This document shows, piece after piece, positions 2,450 through 19,914 of a stretch of DNA of 19,919 bases. Each line of letters starts with the position of its first letter. Positions within the stretch are counted from its first letter, which is position 1. The notes under the pieces were generated by a model. It was given only the letters and a program-made list of their open reading frames with translations, did no database searches and was not told where the DNA came from. This DNA comes from a virus (taxonomy: Duplodnaviria > Heunggongvirae > Uroviricota > Caudoviricetes): the IMG/VR virus record IMGVR_UViG_2737471827_000004; one strand, written 5' to 3'. Position numbers and translations under genes: made by a program.

Positions 2450-2507
2450 TTTCTGGTGACGTTTGGCGGTATCAGTTTTACTCCGTGACTGCTCTGCCGC
2501 CCTTTTT
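2450..2507 (+). ncRNA. dicF: DicF small regulatory RNA (ftsZ-targeting sRNA of Qin-type prophages)
   Basis: Sequence TTTCTGGTGACGTTTGGCGGTATCAGTTTTACTCCGTGACTGCTCTGCCGCCCTTTTT matches my recollection of DicF. Ends in a GC stem (GGCGG/CCGCC) plus T5 intrinsic terminator. Sits directly upstream of dicB as in K-12. Exact processed ends are not determinable here. Confidence 0.7.
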
Positions 2508-3146: not shown

Positions 3147-5618
3147 ATGAGTAAAGTCTTTATTTGCGCCGCTATTCCTGACGAACTGGCAACAAGGGAA
3201 GAAGGCGCTGTGGCTGTAGCCACAGCCATTGAAGCTGGCGACGAACGCCGTGCTCGAGCAAAATTTCACTGGCAGTTCCTGGAACATTATCCGGCTGCTC
3301 AGGACTGCGCTTATAAATTTATTGTCTGCGAGGATAAACCTGGCATACCCCGCCCTGCCCTCGATTCATGGGATGCTGAATATATGCAGGAAAACCGCTG
3401 GGATGAGGAGTCTGCTTCTTTTGTCCCGGTTGAGACTGAATCCGATCCGATGAACGTCACTTTTGACAAGCTGGCCCCTGAAGTACAGAACGCTGTCATG
3501 GTTAAGTTCGACACATGTGAAAACATCACCGTTGATATGGTTATTAGCGCACAGGAATTGTTGCAGGAAGACATGGCAACATTCGACGGACATATCGTTG
3601 AAGCGTTGATGAAAATGCCAGAAGTTAACGCCATGTATCCGGAGCTTAAGTTGCACGCCATTGGGTGGGTTAAGCATAAATGTATTCCTGGTGCTAAATG
3701 GCCCGAAATTCAGGCAGAGATGCGCATCTGGAAAAAACGTCGCGAAGGTGAACGCAAGGAAACCGGAAAATACACGTCTGTTGTTGATCTCGCCCGCGCC
3801 AGAACCAATCAACAGTACACTGAAAATTCAACAGGAAAAATCAGCCCGGTCATTGCTGCCATTCATCGCGAATACAAGCAGACATGGAAAACACTGGATG
3901 ACGAACTGGCCTACGCTCTCTGGCCTGGTGATGTGGATGCCGGAAACATTGACGGCAGCATCCATCGCTGGGCAAAAAAAGAAGTTATCGACAACGACCG
4001 CGAAGACTGGAAGCGTATCTCGGCATCAATGCGCAAACAGCCTGATGCCCTTCGCTACGACCGCCAGACTATTTTTGGCCTTGTCCGTGAGCGTCCGATC
4101 GACATTCACAAAGATCCCATAGCACTGAACAAATATATCTGCGAATACCTGACGACAAAGGGCGTGTTTGAGAATGAAGAAACAGACCTGGGCACTGTTG
4201 ATGTTCTCCAGTCATCAGAAACACAAACTGATGCAGTGGAAACTGAGGTATCTGATATCCCAAAAAATGAAACCGCGCCGGAAGCTGAACCATCTGTAGA
4301 GCGTGAGGGGCCGTTCTATTTCCTCTTCGCAGATAAGGACGGAGAAAAATACGGTCGCGCAAACAAACTTTCTGGTCTGGATAAGGCACTGGCTGCTGGC
4401 GCCACTGAAATCACAAAAGAAGAATATTTTGCCCGAAAAAATGGCACATACACGGGCTTACCGCAAAATGTAGATACCGCTGAAGATTCAGAACAACCAG
4501 AGCCGATAAAAGTTACCGCTGACGAAGTAAACAAAATTATGCAGGCAGCCAATATCAGCCAGCCTGACGCCGATGAACTGCTTGCAGTATCACGTGGTGA
4601 ATTTGTTGAAGGGATTAGCGACCCGAATGATCCGAAATGGATTAAGGGGATCCAGACCCGCGATTCTGTGAACCAGAACCAGCAAGAAACGGAACAGAAC
4701 GACCAGAAAGCGGAACAAAACAGCCCAAATACGCAACAAAACGAGCCAGAAACGAAACAACCTGAACCAGTAGTGCAACAGGAACCGGAAAAGATCTGCA
4801 CCGCCTGCGGTCAGAGCGGTGGCGGCAACTGCCCTGATTGTGGTGCGGTGATGGGTGACGCAACATACCAGGAAATATTCGATGGAGAGAATCAGCCTGA
4901 AGTTCAGGAAAATGATCCGGAGGAAATGGAAGGCACTGCGCATCAGCACAAGGAGAACACTGGCGGCAATCAGCATCATGCCAGCGATAGTGAAACTGGC
5001 GAGGCGTCAGATCCCTTAATTAAGGCAAACGGTCATCATAATCTCACATCCACCAGCAGAGCGGGGATTCATCTGATGATCGACCTTGAAACCATGGGAA
5101 AAAATCCCGATGCCCCGATTATCTCAATAGGTGCAATATTTTTCGATCCGCAAACCGGAGATATGGGACCGGAATTTAGTAAGACTATCGATCTGGAAAC
5201 TGCTGGCGGAGTCATTGATCGGGACACCATTAAATGGTGGCTTAAACAATCACGCGAAGCGCAATCTGCCATTATGACCGATGAAATCCCGTTAGATGAT
5301 GCACTGTTACAATTGCGGGAATTTATCGACGAAAACTCCGGTGAATTTTTTGTTCATGTCTGGGGAAATGGAGCCAACTTCGACAACACGATTTTGCGCC
5401 GTTCATACGAACGGCAGGAGATCCCCTGCCCGTGGCGTTACTACAACGATCGCGATGTACGCACAATCGTTGAGCTGGGGAAAGCCATAGACTTCGATGC
5501 CAGAACGGCTATTCCATTCGAAGGTGAGCGCCATAATGCACTTGATGACGCCCGTTACCAGGCAAAATACGTTTCAGTTATCTGGCAAAAACTGATCCCG
5601 AGTCAGGCTGATTCTTAA
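3147..5618 (+). CDS. Prophage exonuclease (823 aa): long N-terminal region, acidic Q/E/N/P-rich linker, CxxC-x9-CxxC zinc ribbon, C-terminal DEDDh (DnaQ-like) 3'-5' exonuclease domain
   Basis: One uninterrupted ORF. C-terminal motifs Exo I MIDLETMG (D-x-E), Exo II GNGANFD, Exo III HNALDDARYQA. Zinc ribbon CTACGQSGGGNCPDC at about 4797-4841; low-complexity linker about 4630-4790. Occupies the position of K-12 ydfE, which is broken by IS2 there. Resemblance of the N-terminal part to the exodeoxyribonuclease-VIII-annotated family is from memory only. Confidence 0.75.
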   Translation: MSKVFICAAIPDELATREEGAVAVATAIEAGDERRARAKFHWQFLEHYPAAQDCAYKFIVCEDKPGIPRPALDSWDAEYMQENRWDEESASFVPVETESDPMNVTFDKLAPEVQNAVMVKFDTCENITVDMVISAQELLQEDMATFDGHIVEALMKMPEVNAMYPELKLHAIGWVKHKCIPGAKWPEIQAEMRIWKKRREGERKETGKYTSVVDLARARTNQQYTENSTGKISPVIAAIHREYKQTWKTLDDELAYALWPGDVDAGNIDGSIHRWAKKEVIDNDREDWKRISASMRKQPDALRYDRQTIFGLVRERPIDIHKDPIALNKYICEYLTTKGVFENEETDLGTVDVLQSSETQTDAVETEVSDIPKNETAPEAEPSVEREGPFYFLFADKDGEKYGRANKLSGLDKALAAGATEITKEEYFARKNGTYTGLPQNVDTAEDSEQPEPIKVTADEVNKIMQAANISQPDADELLAVSRGEFVEGISDPNDPKWIKGIQTRDSVNQNQQETEQNDQKAEQNSPNTQQNEPETKQPEPVVQQEPEKICTACGQSGGGNCPDCGAVMGDATYQEIFDGENQPEVQENDPEEMEGTAHQHKENTGGNQHHASDSETGEASDPLIKANGHHNLTSTSRAGIHLMIDLETMGKNPDAPIISIGAIFFDPQTGDMGPEFSKTIDLETAGGVIDRDTIKWWLKQSREAQSAIMTDEIPLDDALLQLREFIDENSGEFFVHVWGNGANFDNTILRRSYERQEIPCPWRYYNDRDVRTIVELGKAIDFDARTAIPFEGERHNALDDARYQAKYVSVIWQKLIPSQADS

Positions 5619-14027: not shown

Positions 14028-14268
14028 TTCAAGGACTTGAAGCGGACCCTTAGTAGGCCTGAGGTCCTGCATTGAGTCAAGACCTTGTGTCATTCTTTGT
14101 GCCAGACTTGTGTCATTAGACGGGATGTCTAGACGGCTGGTCAGGACCCTCCGGTGGCCTTGGTATGGACTTGAGGCGGGACTATGGGGGAAGTCTGCTG
14201 GCTTAATGTATTAGATGGTCATTCACATTTTTCTGTCAGAAACCATCGGTCCCACTGTGAGTCCAAAC

Positions 14269-14424: not shown

Positions 14425-14496
14425 TTGGCCCTCCTTATCTTGTATACTACCATACCAGAAATAAGGCCCAGACCCGAAGGTCCAGACCATAGTTAG

Positions 14497-15483
14497 TTAG
14501 TTGGTCTCAGTAAAGCTCAGGCGTTTGACTACAGGCAGGACAGCAGTAGCACTACCAGTACCCATCTTGATTGTCGTAGCAGCTTCAGCGACCACGAAGA
14601 CCTTGCCGAGGATTTCTAGGTCGTGAGACTGAGAGTCGCCATCTCTGGATAAGACCACGGTAATGTTCTCACCATCATGACGGAAGCAGCTGAAGCTCAG
14701 GGCCGTAAAACGCTTAGCCATCATGAACACACCACGGTCCTCACCGTTGTAATACGCGATGTCGGTACCCAGCATATCCACGATAGCGTCTTCGCCACCG
14801 AAGCCCTGCTTAGCAGCCAGACGGGAGAGAGCCTTGAGGTGTGACTCATGGGCGATAATGCCGTAGTCAGAAACCTCAGTACCGAAAGAAGACTCGGTGT
14901 TCTCATACAGGGCATCCATGATAGCGTCAGCCTTAGCGGTCAGGCTACCAGTCAGGACCGGAAGCTCTACAGTCTTCAACAGCTTGGAGGATTCCAGTAC
15001 ATCGACCATGCGACTATTGATGGTACGGACCACGTTATCGCAGATGTTCAGAGCGTCCTGCTGGAGCGTCCCCTGAGTGAAACCAGTGGAAGACTTAGCG
15101 TCCCACAGCTTGGTTTGATGTGATACGAGGATAGCCTGTTCAATCGGCTCCACGGTGATTTCAGTGCCGGACGGAGCGGTCACGACTTCAGGTCGCTTGC
15201 CACCACGGACAGGGACCAGCACAGAGCGGTCAGCCAGAGTGTGAGCAATGATTGGAGTCGGTAAGCTGTTACGGGTCGGCAGGACTTCTACAGGGAACGG
15301 GATGTTATCTTGAGCGTCTTTAAGCACACCATTGAGCATCGTCTTAACCAGCTTAGCCAGCTCAAGGGCGTAGACCTGAGGGTCTGCGTTAGTTGGCAAA
15401 CCTTCGTTAATCTGAATGTTGTCGGTGTCGGTGATACGTACTGGCTCAATGCCGAACTGGAAAGCGTCTTTAGTCATAGTCAT
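14497..15483 (-). CDS. 328-aa hypothetical protein, unassigned
   Basis: Long ORF with AAGGAGA RBS 9 nt upstream. Codon usage rich in GCT/GGT/CGT/AAG/GAC, as in highly expressed coliphage genes. No catalytic motif recognised and no Walker A. Confidence 0.6.
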   Translation of the reverse strand: MTMTKDAFQFGIEPVRITDTDNIQINEGLPTNADPQVYALELAKLVKTMLNGVLKDAQDNIPFPVEVLPTRNSLPTPIIAHTLADRSVLVPVRGGKRPEVVTAPSGTEITVEPIEQAILVSHQTKLWDAKSSTGFTQGTLQQDALNICDNVVRTINSRMVDVLESSKLLKTVELPVLTGSLTAKADAIMDALYENTESSFGTEVSDYGIIAHESHLKALSRLAAKQGFGGEDAIVDMLGTDIAYYNGEDRGVFMMAKRFTALSFSCFRHDGENITVVLSRDGDSQSHDLEILGKVFVVAEAATTIKMGTGSATAVLPVVKRLSFTETN

Positions 15484-15566: not shown

Positions 15567-16058
15567 TTACAAGCAGTCCATCCAGTTAGCGCCACTATCG
15601 AGGTCAGCCATAATTGAAGCCTTGGAACGACCAGCGGAATGGGTAGCACTGCGGAGGTTCTCACCATAGGTCCGGCGTTCAGCTTTGACCTGTTCACGGC
15701 GCTGTAGCTCTTTCTGCCACTCTGCATCGGTCATGTTCTCTTCACGCATACGCTCAGCCTGAAGTCGTTGCTCTTTAGCGATACGCTCAGCCTCAGCTCG
15801 TTTGTTAAGCTGGCGGCGACCATAGGCGGTCATCAGGTCATTACTGAAGAAGTTACCAATGGTCACGCCAGCTTCAGCAAGAGCTTCCAGTAACTCCATT
15901 GCTTCGCGGCTGGTGGATGGCAAGCCTGACAGATACCCCGGAATGAGGGTCTTGATAGCGAGGGACAGCGGATAGGACTGATCGTCCAGACTCACAGTAT
16001 TCTCGTAGAGATTGATGTCGGTGACTGACAGCTTCCAGTTGTTGTTGTTGAATAACAT
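15567..16058 (-). CDS. 163-aa hypothetical protein with a highly charged predicted coiled-coil segment
   Basis: AGAGGAG RBS 7-8 nt upstream. Charged segment RRQLNKRAEAERIAKEQRLQAERMREENMTDAEWQKELQRREQVKAERR. Confidence 0.55.
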   Translation of the reverse strand: MLFNNNNWKLSVTDINLYENTVSLDDQSYPLSLAIKTLIPGYLSGLPSTSREAMELLEALAEAGVTIGNFFSNDLMTAYGRRQLNKRAEAERIAKEQRLQAERMREENMTDAEWQKELQRREQVKAERRTYGENLRSATHSAGRSKASIMADLDSGANWMDCL

Positions 16059-16677: not shown

Positions 16678-17388
16678 TTAGAGTCCCTTCTGCTTGCCGG
16701 ATTTGGCTTGCTTCAGGAGGTATTCCTGCTTCTGCTGGTCGGTGCCAGTGAATGCAATAAGGATGCCTTTCATCTTGTCAATCGTCTCAGGTCTACCGAA
16801 GACCTCCAGTCCCTTAGCGTTGAAGCGAAAGTTATAACCACCTGCTGAGAACTTCTGGTCTGACGGCTTAATGATACGGAAGCAGTCGGAATACTTTGGA
16901 TTTACAGACCACTCGTTACTGATTGGATTCTTACGAAAGAGACCACGATGCTGAAGAAGTGCGGTCATTAGCTTCTGAGCAGGTAGACCATAGGTTTTGC
17001 AGTAGTCACCCCAAGTCACGCCTCGACGGTTAGCGGACTGAATTGCTGCTCGCTTCTTCTGGTCTTCCAGTAACTGCTTGTCCTTCTCAATTCGTCGGAT
17101 GTATTCAAGGACTTTGCGACGCACAGCTTTAGACTCACGCATACCGACCAATAGTAGTTGGTCTCCGTTAAGGATAGTGTGAGAGGATTTACGTCCAGAA
17201 GCGCCCGTGTCTAATAAAAGGAAATTTTCCTCTTTTAAATCCAGCTCATCCTTCACGCGATTGATGAAGTCCTTATTACTGACGGGATTCTCCCCGGCCT
17301 CTTCACGGGCAGGATTGATAACCTTGGTCAGGAACTCATAGGAAGACAGAGAGAACTCATCGTTAAAGATGACTACTTGTTGAGACAT
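16678..17388 (-). CDS. Rha/antirepressor-like phage regulatory protein (236 aa); C-terminal half unassigned
   Basis: Track ORF 16678-17601 has an implausible N-terminal extension. ATG at 17388 (MSQQVVIFNDEF...) has a perfect AAGGAG 8 nt upstream. The N-terminal region (LLLDTGASGRKSSHTILNGDQLLLVGMRESKAVRRKVLEYI) resembles the N-terminal DNA-binding domain of Rha/Ant-type phage proteins; this is a family-level impression. Confidence 0.5.
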   Translation of the reverse strand: MSQQVVIFNDEFSLSSYEFLTKVINPAREEAGENPVSNKDFINRVKDELDLKEENFLLLDTGASGRKSSHTILNGDQLLLVGMRESKAVRRKVLEYIRRIEKDKQLLEDQKKRAAIQSANRRGVTWGDYCKTYGLPAQKLMTALLQHRGLFRKNPISNEWSVNPKYSDCFRIIKPSDQKFSAGGYNFRFNAKGLEVFGRPETIDKMKGILIAFTGTDQQKQEYLLKQAKSGKQKGL

Positions 17389-17957
17389 ATCGTTGTACTC
17401 CTTTTTGTTATGCCTCCTGAAGTCACACCCTGAGAGCCTACTCAAGCCCCCAACGATAGGGAGACTCACAGGCAACAGGAGACATACAGAAAGACTTGAG
17501 GTGATGATGAGGTCGTGTGAAGACCAGAGATGATGGTGGTGGTGGTGACTGCTCAGTTTTGAGCGCGTTAAGTTCTTCGACCATAGAGACGAAGGTTGCA
17601 AGACCGCATGTCAGGACGAGCTGTAAGGACTCCAGATGGTGAGCGGTGATAGACTTAAGCCAATGTAGTGAGTAGACGAGCTACTAACTGAGATGACTGA
17701 AGAACGCTAACGAGCTGGAGGTCGATACACGAGGTCTGACAGAGGCGGTCTTCCTACCAGTGATAGTTAAGCCCTACCACTGGTCATACATACCCAACCT
17801 CAAGCAACGACCCAATGTATACAGGGTCCCGATGCTTTGAGCTGGAGACTGACGGAGCTATCGTCGACCCCATGGTTGAGGAAGACACATAGAAGGAATG
17901 AGGTCTGACTTAAGTCTGGACTATAGGTCTTATATTAATCTTCATAAGAAGATAATA

Positions 17958-18008
17958 ATTAACTTAGAGTCATAACTTCAGTCTTACTTAGAGTCTTAAC
18001 TTTAAGTC
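17958..18008. repeat. Array of four imperfect ~11-bp direct repeats (ACTTAGAGTC / ACTTCAGTC / ACTTAGAGTC / ACTTTAAGTC) in an AT-rich stretch
   Basis: Read directly from the sequence. Lies in the 767-bp non-coding region between the HNH gene and the Rha-like gene. A palindrome GACTTAAGTC sits at about 17909-17918, and a C7-T-C6 tract at 18024-18037. Confidence 0.6.
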
Positions 18009-18155
18009 AGCATCTATGGTCTGCCCCCCCTCCCCCCATTGCTGGAAGGAGAGGCGGTAGTGTCTGCCATTTTCCCTATACTGATAATTTAGCACCCTCC
18101 TCTACAGACCAGACGCACCAAGGCCTACAGAGGCGCTCTAAGTTAGCAACCGTCA

Positions 18156-18890: not shown

Positions 18891-18897
18891 GATGGAT

Positions 18898-19914
18898 ACC
18901 CTCGTTAATCAGCATTCTGACATCAACAAAACGCATGAAATTCTGCAGGACGAATCGAAATGCGAAATGATTGTGATCATCGAAAACTTTATGACCTCAT
19001 CGGCAAAATATGCCGACATTCTGCTGCCAGACCTGATGACCGTTGAGCAGGAAGATATTATTCCTAACGACTACGCCGGTAACATGGGATATCTCATTTT
19101 CCTCCAGCCTGTCACCAGCGAAAAATTCGAACGCAAACCGATTTACTGGATCCTGAGTGAAGTCGCGAAACGTCTTGGACCTGACGTCTATCAAAAGTTC
19201 ACAGAAGGTCGCACGCAGGAACAATGGTTACAACATCTGTACGCCAAAATGCTTGCCAAAGATCCGGCGTTACCGTCTTACGACGAACTGAAAAAAATGG
19301 GTATCTATAAGCGTAAAGATCCCAATGGCCATTTTGTCGCCTACAAAGCATTTCGTGACGACCCCGAGGCAAATCCACTTAAAACGCCTTCCGGTAAGAT
19401 TGAAATTTATTCCAGCAGGCTGGCGGAAATTGCCCGTACCTGGGAACTGGAAAAAGATGAAGTGATAAGCCCATTGCCAGTTTATGCCTCAACCTTTGAA
19501 GGCTGGAACTCCCCTGAACGTAGAACCTTCCCACTGCAACTGTTTGGTTTCCATTACAAATCCCGTACTCACTCGACCTACGGCAATATTGATCTCCTGA
19601 AGGCTGCCTGCCGTCAGGAGGTGTGGATCAACCCTATAGATGCGCAGAAACGTGGGATTGCCAACGGCGATATGGTGCGGGTGTTTAACCATCGTGGCGA
19701 AGTTCGGCTACCAGCCAAAGTAACACCACGTATTCTCCCTGGAGTTAGCGCTATGGGCCAGGGAGCCTGGCACGAGGCCAATATGTCTGGCGATAAAATC
19801 GACCATGGCGGCTGTGTGAATACGCTAACCACTCTGCGCCCTTCACCACTGGCGAAGGGAAACCCGCAGCACACTAATCTGGTCGAGATCGAAAAAATAG
19901 TAAGCGTAAACTGA
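18898..19914 (+). pseudogene. ynfE: ynfE 3' fragment (C-terminal 338 codons plus stop)
   Basis: In-frame continuation TLVNQHSDINKTHEILQDESKCEMIVIIENFMTSSAKYADILLPD... to the stop at 19912-19914. The MIRSSGLAGRPMMD prefix of the track ORF is read-through of junction and insert sequence. Confidence 0.85.

Follow-up and report, generated by a model that had tools for sequence, protein, structure and literature searches.

A putative phage-polymerase-dependent promoter and structured 5′ leader in a satellite-like chromosomal island of Escherichia coli

Introduction

Promoters read by T7-family RNA polymerases are thought of as a property of phages. Here, we analyse a 767-bp non-coding region (positions 17389-18155) of a 19,919-nucleotide stretch recorded as the virus IMGVR_UViG_2737471827_000004, hereafter the window. 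The window is E. coli chromosome with an island of ~6.5 kb inserted in ynfE, and the region probably combines a promoter of this phage type with a structured leader for the island's operon. The closest arrangement is reportedly found in T7 itself, where, in the account of Dunn and Studier from 1983, several RNase III sites lie just 3′ of promoters (phi1.3/R1.3, phi3.8/R3.8, phi6.5/R6.5 and phi13/R13). The primary origin of T7, treated by Saito and colleagues in 1980, is said to consist of two tandem promoters (phi1.1A/phi1.1B) with an AT-rich region and a primase site. In human mitochondrial DNA (mtDNA), the conserved sequence block CSBII (G5-6AG7-8) reportedly lies downstream of the light-strand promoter LSP, and a T7-related polymerase makes the replication primer there, as is attributed to Wanrooij and colleagues (2010 and 2012). 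The cf-PICIs, reportedly treated by Alqurainy and colleagues in 2023, are capsid-forming phage-inducible chromosomal islands.

Other small elements have been described as satellites of virulent phages or as carriers of phage defence. PICMI are ~6-kb satellites of virulent vibriophages that have no capsid gene, are activated by AlpA and are packaged from headful concatemers (PMC10803314). RAZR/PD-T7-4 is an anti-T7 defence (PMC9519451, PMC13017515), the gene of which often overlaps an integrase gene (PMC9519451). An element that interrupts ynfE has been listed as an integrative element (PMC7192596). The texts of PMC9519451 and PMC13017515 hold nothing on phage-type promoters, a capsid gene or a conserved hairpin, and full-text searches yielded no account of chromosomal islands with T7-type promoters, nor of any satellite of T7-like coliphages.

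Results

The non-coding regions of the island family carry promoters of a T7-like phage. Their alignment revealed CCCTAAACTATCACTATAGGGAGACC upstream of a conserved segment. The listed ~40-kb phages of the Kayfunavirus type have 6-8 sites per genome that agree at 100% identity with a 25-nt stretch of the islands, CTAAACTATCACTATAGGGAGACCA; 525 phage records in all match it. In phage Bas105, the copies of this promoter precede gene blocks, in the manner of T7-type promoters. The Kayfunavirus-type consensus spans ~23 nt (-17 to +6; CTAAACTATCACTATAGGGAGA) and is fully matched by homologous sites in the related island loci L014, L010, L002 and others. A position weight matrix trained solely on nine Bas105 promoters was used to score 39,794 positions of the window, and the two best of all lie in the 767-bp region:

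18071-18093, minus strand: P1*, a look-alike of the T7-group (Kayfunavirus-type) promoter, GCTAAATTATCAGTATAGGGAAA, found with the matrix; predicted start at G18076
17750-17772, minus strand: P2*, a decayed second phage-type promoter (GCTTAACTATCACTGGTAGGAAG), found with the matrix

P1* (18093-18071) scores 21.7 bits and P2* (17772-17750) 8.9 bits, followed by 7.2 bits for the next position elsewhere in the window, compared with 32.7-36.8 bits for the Bas105 promoters themselves. P1* deviates from the consensus at two core positions. Its homologous site is perfect in L014 and L010 (36.5 and 37.2 bits), and the P1* variant, ATCAGTATAGGG, is common to L001, L015, L016 and L017. P2* directly abuts the conserved hairpin module described below, which in relatives lies ~90-100 nt past the promoter; the ~100-nt leader of the relatives is lost here. 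At the P2 position, relatives have a perfect Kayfunavirus-type promoter, another T7-group variant (L006, L015 and L017) or tandem promoters of two types.

Position and strand agree with a role in transcribing the island genes. Nearly all strong island sites share the strand of the genes and form two sets, of which one precedes cargo slot 1 and the other the conserved hairpin. When orientation was examined in the window and the E. coli ynfE islands, the sites were all intergenic and on the gene strand; in longer loci of other species, a few weak minus-strand matches fall outside the island cores. The initial annotation had placed the operon promoter in this region. The promoter role is supported, and its type appears to be that of a T7-group phage RNA polymerase instead of host sigma-70, as a sigma-70 promoter scan of the region gave no match.

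In the islands of Leclercia, Citrobacter and Enterobacter, promoters of two different specificities stand in tandem, ~27 nt apart, at both of the promoter positions:

L023 7428/7455; L025 7479/7505 and 8031/8058: ACCCTCACTATAGGGA-type promoter followed by CTAAACTATCACTATAGGGA-type promoter
L026 7876/7903; L029 7490/7517 and 8060/8087: ACCCTCACTATAGGGA-type promoter followed by CTAAACTATCACTATAGGGA-type promoter

For the second type (AAATCTTATACCCTCACTATAGG), sites with 100% identity over 23 nt recur 2-8 times per genome in a different group of T7-like phages, which includes Cronobacter GW1, Escherichia Ro103C3lw and Shigella SFP20. Judged by these matches, the tandem promoters look like sensors for two groups of T7-like phages.

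Two further observations concern the promoters. The sequence AACGATAGGGAGA at window positions 17452-17464 (plus strand) lies on the opposite strand, points into the region and agrees with 11 of 13 promoter-core positions; it has no upstream specificity bases, is also part of the last leader hairpin and is probably no promoter. In L014, the non-coding stretch measures 1,285 bp (3996-5280) and holds a short promoter-hairpin unit (promoter 5264, hairpin 5056-5165) and, in tandem with it, a long one of the window type (promoter 4712, hairpin 4221-4376).

Downstream of both promoters lies the island family's most widely conserved non-coding element:

17598-17754, minus strand: imperfect hairpin of ~150 nt, identified by folding, covariation and a covariance model

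This segment is 95-99% identical in many otherwise mosaic islands and is conserved more strongly than the flanking genes. It folds at -56 kcal/mol (z score -4.4). In a MAFFT alignment of 12 variants, six of the 33 predicted pairs keep their pairing through two-sided changes. When 19 distinct sequences from six genera were aligned to a covariance model, 95.1% of the cells were paired, compared with at most 37.6% in controls in which the pairing partners were slid by 1-3 columns. Two-sided changes affect nine pairs, a number that 2 of 500 shuffles reach, and the covariation score was reached by none of 500. Natural deletions remove the apex alone or both partners of an inner stem. The sense strand has 23 G.U pairs vs 10 A.C mismatches. 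The internal-loop sequence AAGTCTATCA is invariant, as is the unpaired GTTCT, across all 19 distinct variants. Islands of Citrobacter, Leclercia, Enterobacter, Buttiauxella and Shigella are matched by the covariance model, and phage Bas105 contains no match. A search of Rfam 15 returned no family at the gathering threshold in the region, the best permissive matches (E 0.08-0.15) being far below the gathering scores.

A conserved, irregular hairpin of the sense transcript is thus found just 3′ of a phage-type promoter, as at the RNase III processing sites of T7-like mRNAs, and is a candidate for such cleavage. The initial annotation, which regarded the region as a candidate origin, packaging or promoter region, had named a conserved structured RNA as a finding that would speak against its proposal, and the ~150-nt hairpin is such an element. 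A class II T7 pause signal (ATCTGTT-like) in the hairpin was considered and rejected, since the similar ATCTGG is unconserved in L008 and L009.

Conservation across other E. coli genomes marks the region as more than chance. The chromosomes of strains L73 and KOr024 carry it at 100% identity. The L73 island measures ~6.7 kb and splits ynfE at the 11-bp core CATCTGGAACT. It still has its integrase, and its genes, all on the minus strand, are ordered integrase, HNH_3, the 767-bp gap, Ant-like, two small open reading frames (ORFs), a 163-aa protein and a 328-aa protein. The tyrosine integrase has 528 aa (PF00589; match in L001).

Among 5,426 complete E. coli genomes, the 328-aa gene is present in 306 (about 6%), the 166-nt hairpin segment is matched in 136, part of the 767-bp region in 114, and most of it in only 14. 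Many genomes share only window positions 17601-17750, at 95-99% identity, in islands with different neighbouring genes; the E. coli islands that share this segment are all located in ynfE. Outside E. coli, relatives occur in Shigella, Citrobacter, Leclercia, Enterobacter and Buttiauxella, five further genera of enterobacteria. The common plan comprises the integrase, variable cargo slot 1, the non-coding region, variable cargo slot 2, the 163-aa protein and the 328-aa protein. In E. coli genomes, the island genes are mostly annotated as 'hypothetical protein'. Metagenome contigs of ~6.6-6.9 kb are integrated copies with ynfE flanks, not free forms, and a search of viral contigs for free or packaged DNA gave no exact island match. 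The sister island L010 begins at the 3′ end of a tRNA, not in ynfE.

The genes on either side of the region are all on the minus strand, as the initial annotation had them, with an HNH gene upstream and the operon downstream. The island also holds a second segment that resembles phage DNA:

18156-18890, minus strand: HNH_3 homing-type endonuclease, 244 aa, in cargo slot 1 (PF13392, E 4.9e-15; phrog_99, E 3.9e-36)
16678-17388, minus strand: Ant-like protein, 236 aa, first operon gene after the leader (phrog_10324, anti-repressor Ant, E 1.5e-30)
14497-15483, minus strand: 328-aa protein with a predicted HK97 major-capsid-protein fold, last large operon gene (AlphaFold2, Foldseek)
14160-14258, minus strand: look-alike of the Kayfunavirus concatemer junction (local alignment to Bas105 4018-4117)

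The 328-aa protein has the HK97 capsid fold in an AlphaFold2 model with a predicted local distance difference test (pLDDT) score of 82.4 and a predicted template modelling (pTM) score of 0.78, built with 33 homologues from an exhaustive profile search, distant ones included. Foldseek gave 197 PDB matches at E <= 1e-3. Each of the 50 listed is an HK97-fold capsid or encapsulin shell protein, and in the viral library BFVD the named matches are capsid or head proteins. The protein matches no Pfam or PHROG family, and a profile comparison with the Bas105 capsid found no sequence relation. Pfam and PHROG scans of the island proteins recognised no other virion genes, and no Rep, primase or helicase was recognised among them. 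The island family is therefore integrative (tyrosine integrase in L001) and has its own capsid fold, with no full virion set recognised.

Cargo slot 1 of relatives holds other genes. In L010, it is PD-T7-4/RAZR (E 1e-97) at 1765-2418, which overlaps the integrase gene and is followed immediately by a perfect Kayfunavirus-type promoter with G6TAG6 (2436-2505). With its own predicted HK97-fold capsid protein and anti-phage cargo, the island is satellite-like, and the link to satellites, small phages and podophages drawn by the initial annotation proved apt, as a capsid protein of this fold is encoded and Kayfunavirus signals are copied.

The junction look-alike is non-coding, downstream of the capsid gene, near attL and outside the 767-bp gap. 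Its alignment to Bas105 scores 33 (shuffles 20.8 +/- 2.4, maximum 30), and the aligned junction consists of the end of the right unique arm and the start of the terminal repeat (TCTCACAG...CCCCATAGG). The best matches of L002, L006, L010, L014 and L029 fall on the same Bas105 coordinates, and L014 has a 31-nt junction copy at 1163-1193 (96.8% identity, E 1.5e-8). We consider 14160-14258 a candidate packaging signal. After excision, it would adjoin attP and the integrase end of the island.

Short matches to Bas105 were also noted around the integrase gene. A 28-nt hairpin, GGAGGGTGATAATAATCATAATCCCTCC, just past the integrase stop codon in L002 and L014, is 96% identical to Bas105 3593-3620 and, from this match, appears to be a further short signal copied from the helper-type phage. 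In the 5′ part of the integrase gene, L001 23167-23182 carries the 16-nt TCCCTATCTGTATCAG, identical to Bas105 4259-4274; at E 0.05, this may be chance. The Bas105 site lies near the right terminal-repeat boundary and resembles a T7 class II pause signal.

Other observations concern the remaining genes. The 163-aa protein (15567-16058, minus strand) has weak matches to designed pentatricopeptide-repeat proteins (E 5e-4) and a faint one to DUF6971; it may be a helical-repeat protein, and a role as scaffold or RNA binder is a guess. Just past the capsid-gene stop codon, at window ~14450-14490 (minus strand), a G.U-containing hairpin, GGTCTGGACC-TTCG-GGTCTGGGCC, is followed by TTATTT and resembles the T7 terminator T-phi, which comes after the capsid gene; next is a small ORF for ~50 hydrophobic aa, preceded by a Shine-Dalgarno sequence. 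The HNH protein was considered as a partner in cos packaging (HK97-style HNH-cos-TerS) and rejected, being a homing-type HNH_3 in a variable cargo slot. Integrase arm sites in the gap were rejected because the region sits mid-island.

From these sequence comparisons, we favour the view that the 767 bp are a phage-polymerase-dependent promoter with a structured 5′ leader, serving the operon of a satellite-like integrative island, and we consider this probable though by no means assured. A T7-like phage of the Kayfunavirus/K1F type would infect the cell and supply its single-subunit RNA polymerase, which would read the island promoters. Given a promoter of the T7-like type and no host-type promoter, the operon (Ant-like, small ORFs, 163-aa and capsid genes) would be expressed on infection. 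The transcript would begin near G18076 and fold into a sense-strand series, namely a G-tract hairpin, a hairpin of repeats and AT-rich sequence, a GGGTC palindrome and the ~150-nt hairpin. These hairpins may act in stabilising the mRNA, in RNase III processing or in both, a role suggested by analogy because the pairing of promoter and hairpin copies the promoter/RNase III-site units of T7.

The initial annotation had listed short direct repeats, a palindrome, an AT-rich block, a C-rich tract and a (GGT)4 run in this region. All are present, at coordinates 0-3 bases off, and most belong to hairpins:

18099-18133, minus strand: hairpin CCTCTGTAG...CTGTAGAGG, read from the sequence and conserved in L014-L017
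18024-18057, minus strand: 5′-leader hairpin of the pyrimidine arm CCGCCUCUCCUUCC and G6AG7 (folding -29.3 kcal/mol, z score -3.1)
17959-18008, minus strand: four direct repeats of ~12 nt (GACTYTAAGTWA), found with Tandem Repeats Finder
17907-17983, minus strand: imperfect inverted repeat (hairpin) of ~77 nt, in the minimum-free-energy and centroid structures
17802-17837, minus strand: palindromic hairpin AAGCATCGGGACCCTGTATACATTGGGTCGTTGCTT with GGGTC on both strands (inverted repeat I3)
17389-17597, minus strand: leader to the Ant-like gene, with (ACC)4, a terminal hairpin and a Shine-Dalgarno sequence

The hairpin at 18099-18133 follows the HNH stop codon (18158-18156), ahead of the first phage-type promoter, and it forms only on the sense strand, because it needs two G.U pairs. 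The C7TC6 tract occupies exactly 18024-18037 and spans +40 to +53 from the P1* start. It is one arm of a hairpin, as CCGCCUCUCCUUCC pairs with G6AG7, and this hairpin likewise depends on G.U pairs. The tract is kept in six other islands with varying length (G6AG6, G6AG7, G6AG8 or G6TAG6 on the gene strand), and the L010 and L006 variants have the same G-tract hairpin architecture with different 5′ arms.

The direct repeats are recovered by Tandem Repeats Finder at 17959-18002 (period 12-13, 3.5 copies, 75% matches, score 60). On the gene strand the units read GACTTAAAGTTAA, GACTCTAAGTAA, GACTGAAGTTAT and GACTCTAAGTTAA; their number differs between sister islands, with four in the window and eight in L015, and L006 has a different set. 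Units 3 and 4 pair with GAAGATTAATATAAGACCTATAGTCCAGACTTAAGTC in the ~77-nt inverted repeat (17983-17907), of which the AT-rich block is the apex and the palindrome GACTTAAGTC, present at 17907-17916, the 3′ end. A perfect 10-nt palindrome in 767 nt is near chance expectation. The palindrome at 17802-17837 is kept in L006, L010 and L014-L017, and in L010 the outer stem is altered on both sides with pairing retained. Further downstream, the (GGT)4 run at 17535-17546 looks incidental, because unrelated sequence replaces it in L006. The Shine-Dalgarno sequence AAGGAG (17403-17398) precedes the ATG of the Ant-like gene (17388-17386). Folding of the whole leader gives a z score of -5.5 for the sense strand and -3.5 for the antisense strand. 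The region has no credible ORF, in keeping with the initial annotation: none exceeds 48 aa on either strand, and the longest are broken by indels in relatives. A small-protein reading was rejected, as ORFs of this size (<=48 aa) are unconserved.

Several points weigh against a promoter and leader that work in this way. The window promoter copies are recognisable but weakened (21.7 and 8.9 vs 32-37 bits), and the ATTATCAGTATAGGG variant occurs in no phage of a collection of 50,697 records; for both reasons, the window copy may fire weakly or not at all. The segment between P1 and P2, with G tract, repeats, AT block and palindrome, is present only in a subset of islands and hence is accessory. 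In the ~150-nt hairpin, the strand asymmetry in G.U and A.C is modest, and the covariation counts are not independent events because the sequences are closely related (effective number 1.3). RNase III cleavage is unpredictable from sequence, and the hairpin exceeds the T7 R sites in length. Finally, the island in the window is without integrase and attR and may be a relic.

That last point leads to the best-surviving alternative, in which the region is inert in this strain, a decaying copy in an immobilised island kept only through recent arrival. Compared with L73, the window copy has a 1.8-kb deletion (window ~18891-18909; L001 21523-23323) that took the integrase gene, attR and one phage-type promoter upstream of HNH, and the start region of HNH is fused to the 3′ part of ynfE via ATACC microhomology. 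Because integrase and attR are deleted, this copy is immobilised. Mutation of both P1* and P2* and loss of the leader between P2 and the hairpin also fit a relic. However, the identical 767 bp are found in L73, which keeps its integrase, and in KOr024, four further island loci have the P1* variant as well, and the ORFs downstream of the gap are all intact. A relic thus seems possible, with perhaps a quarter of our belief.

Elsewhere in the window, the antisense RNA DicF is found at 2451-2502 (plus strand; Rfam RF00039, 76.7 bits vs a gathering score of 48) as the single Rfam match of the whole window, and for this reason the left part of the window is taken as a segment of a Qin-like cryptic prophage by rspAB and ynfA-D. 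A scan for tRNA and tmRNA found none.

Somewhat less probable, and compatible with the promoter and leader role, is a transcription-primed origin in the style of T7, which would occupy 17800-18100. Phage polymerase starting at P1* would leave a persistent RNA-DNA hybrid at the G-rich non-template tract, the AT-rich apex would melt, GGGTC primase sites would start lagging strands, and the helper's replisome would copy the excised island. The layout is suggestive, with a promoter, G6AG7 at a fixed +40 in seven islands, the AT-rich block 118-156 nt downstream and the GGGTC palindrome. As no replication protein is recognised in the island, the helper's machinery would have to be borrowed. The G6AG7 tract also has the form of human mtDNA CSBII. 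On the other hand, most islands (L002-L005 and L007-L009) lack the segment, which therefore cannot be an origin that the family depends on, and pairing within an RNA hairpin accounts well for the G tract. Two GGGTC sites per 767 bp, counted on both strands, are close to chance expectation, nothing comparable to the G tract is present in Bas105, and no sequence similarity to any phage is seen. An origin of the iteron type is not supported, as the direct repeats belong to an inverted repeat as one of its arms, their number and presence differ between islands, and no initiator is recognised among the island proteins. An oriT mimic or plasmid-derived origin was rejected in view of DNA searches against phages and plasmids, which gave no similarity save one 80-nt match at 80% identity.

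We give a similarly low weight to a broader proposal, in which the region would be both a phage-sensing switch and a transcription-primed origin of undescribed, ~6.5-kb, capsid-encoding satellites of virulent T7-like phages, with the helper's RNA polymerase switching on the genes and, by way of the CSBII-like G6AG7 and the AT-rich hairpin, priming replication, and with the junction mimic serving packaging.

The hairpins could alternatively make the region a source of trans-acting non-coding RNA, which we regard as unlikely. Stable hairpin RNAs, released by cleavage of the phage-polymerase transcript, would bind a phage mRNA or a protein of the phage or the island, and so interfere with the helper or time the island programme. 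The invariant unpaired AAGTCTATCA and GTTCT suggest a specific ligand, the hairpin's conservation above that of the flanking genes would fit, and the region has 31 11-mers in common with Bas105, about twice the 14 +/- 5 of shuffles. Yet beyond the promoter there is no extended complementarity to the phage genome, no terminator marks a discrete RNA, and a place between promoter and operon is the position of a cis leader. An antisense 'sponge' of phage leader motifs, formed by the repeat array, was rejected for the same want of extended complementarity.

That the region itself is a packaging site or genome end (a pac site or terminal repeat), as the initial annotation had also proposed, is very improbable: its short repeats and AT-rich DNA are loosely like the arrays beside T7-like terminal repeats, and the motif TAGTCCAGAC occurs both in the region and in the Bas105 terminal region, but its alignment to the phage end is at shuffle level (24 vs 21.8 +/- 2.3), the stretches that do align to the junction are 14160-14258 and the corresponding ones of five other islands, and the repeat segment is missing in most islands.

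Discussion

Exact copies of phage promoters, together with a capsid gene, a junction mimic and anti-T7 cargo, point to a mobile element that would sense infection via the invader's own polymerase. If this is true, the islands would be a new satellite or defence family directed against virulent T7-like coliphages, a group in wide use for phage therapy and in biotechnology. This would also explain the genomic home of RAZR and provide natural, orthogonal expression cassettes triggered by phage.

When comparing the region with the promoter/RNase III units of T7, the same order is apparent, a 23-nt promoter followed ~0-100 nt on by an imperfect hairpin and then by genes. Unlike the T7 units, this one sits in a bacterial chromosomal island, and its hairpin of ~150 nt is 2-3 times the length of the T7 R sites, with RNase III cleavage a possibility suggested by analogy.

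At the level of the whole element, the island resembles the cf-PICIs as an integrative satellite with its own HK97-fold capsid protein and a helper for other functions, features that are read here from sequence and a structural model. However, it measures only ~6.5 kb, has no recognisable portal, protease, terminase or head-tail genes, and its capsid protein has no Pfam match. Its signals point to a virulent T7-like helper and the RNA polymerase of that helper, rather than to induction by SOS or an anti-repressor. PICMI is similar in being a very small integrative element with dependence on virulent phages and defence cargo, as far as the island's sequence suggests. It differs in that the island has a capsid gene, and no phage-polymerase promoters are reported for PICMI. 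The islands known for PD-T7-4/RAZR and integrase are matched by L010, which carries PD-T7-4 overlapping the integrase gene as described, followed by the P1 promoter and the G tract, whereas the cargo slot of the window holds an HNH endonuclease.

The upstream part of the region recalls two replication systems. Its layout is like that of the primary origin of T7, with a phage-type promoter or promoters, an AT-rich stretch and putative primase recognition sequences, and sister islands have tandem promoters as well. There is no sequence similarity to that origin, the AT block here forms the apex of an inverted repeat, and most family members lack the segment. Like CSBII, the island tract places G6AG7 on the non-template strand, tens of nucleotides past a promoter for a T7-family polymerase, and varies in length. 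The organism and context are unrelated, however, and the island tract forms a simple hairpin with a run of pyrimidines that lies upstream of it.

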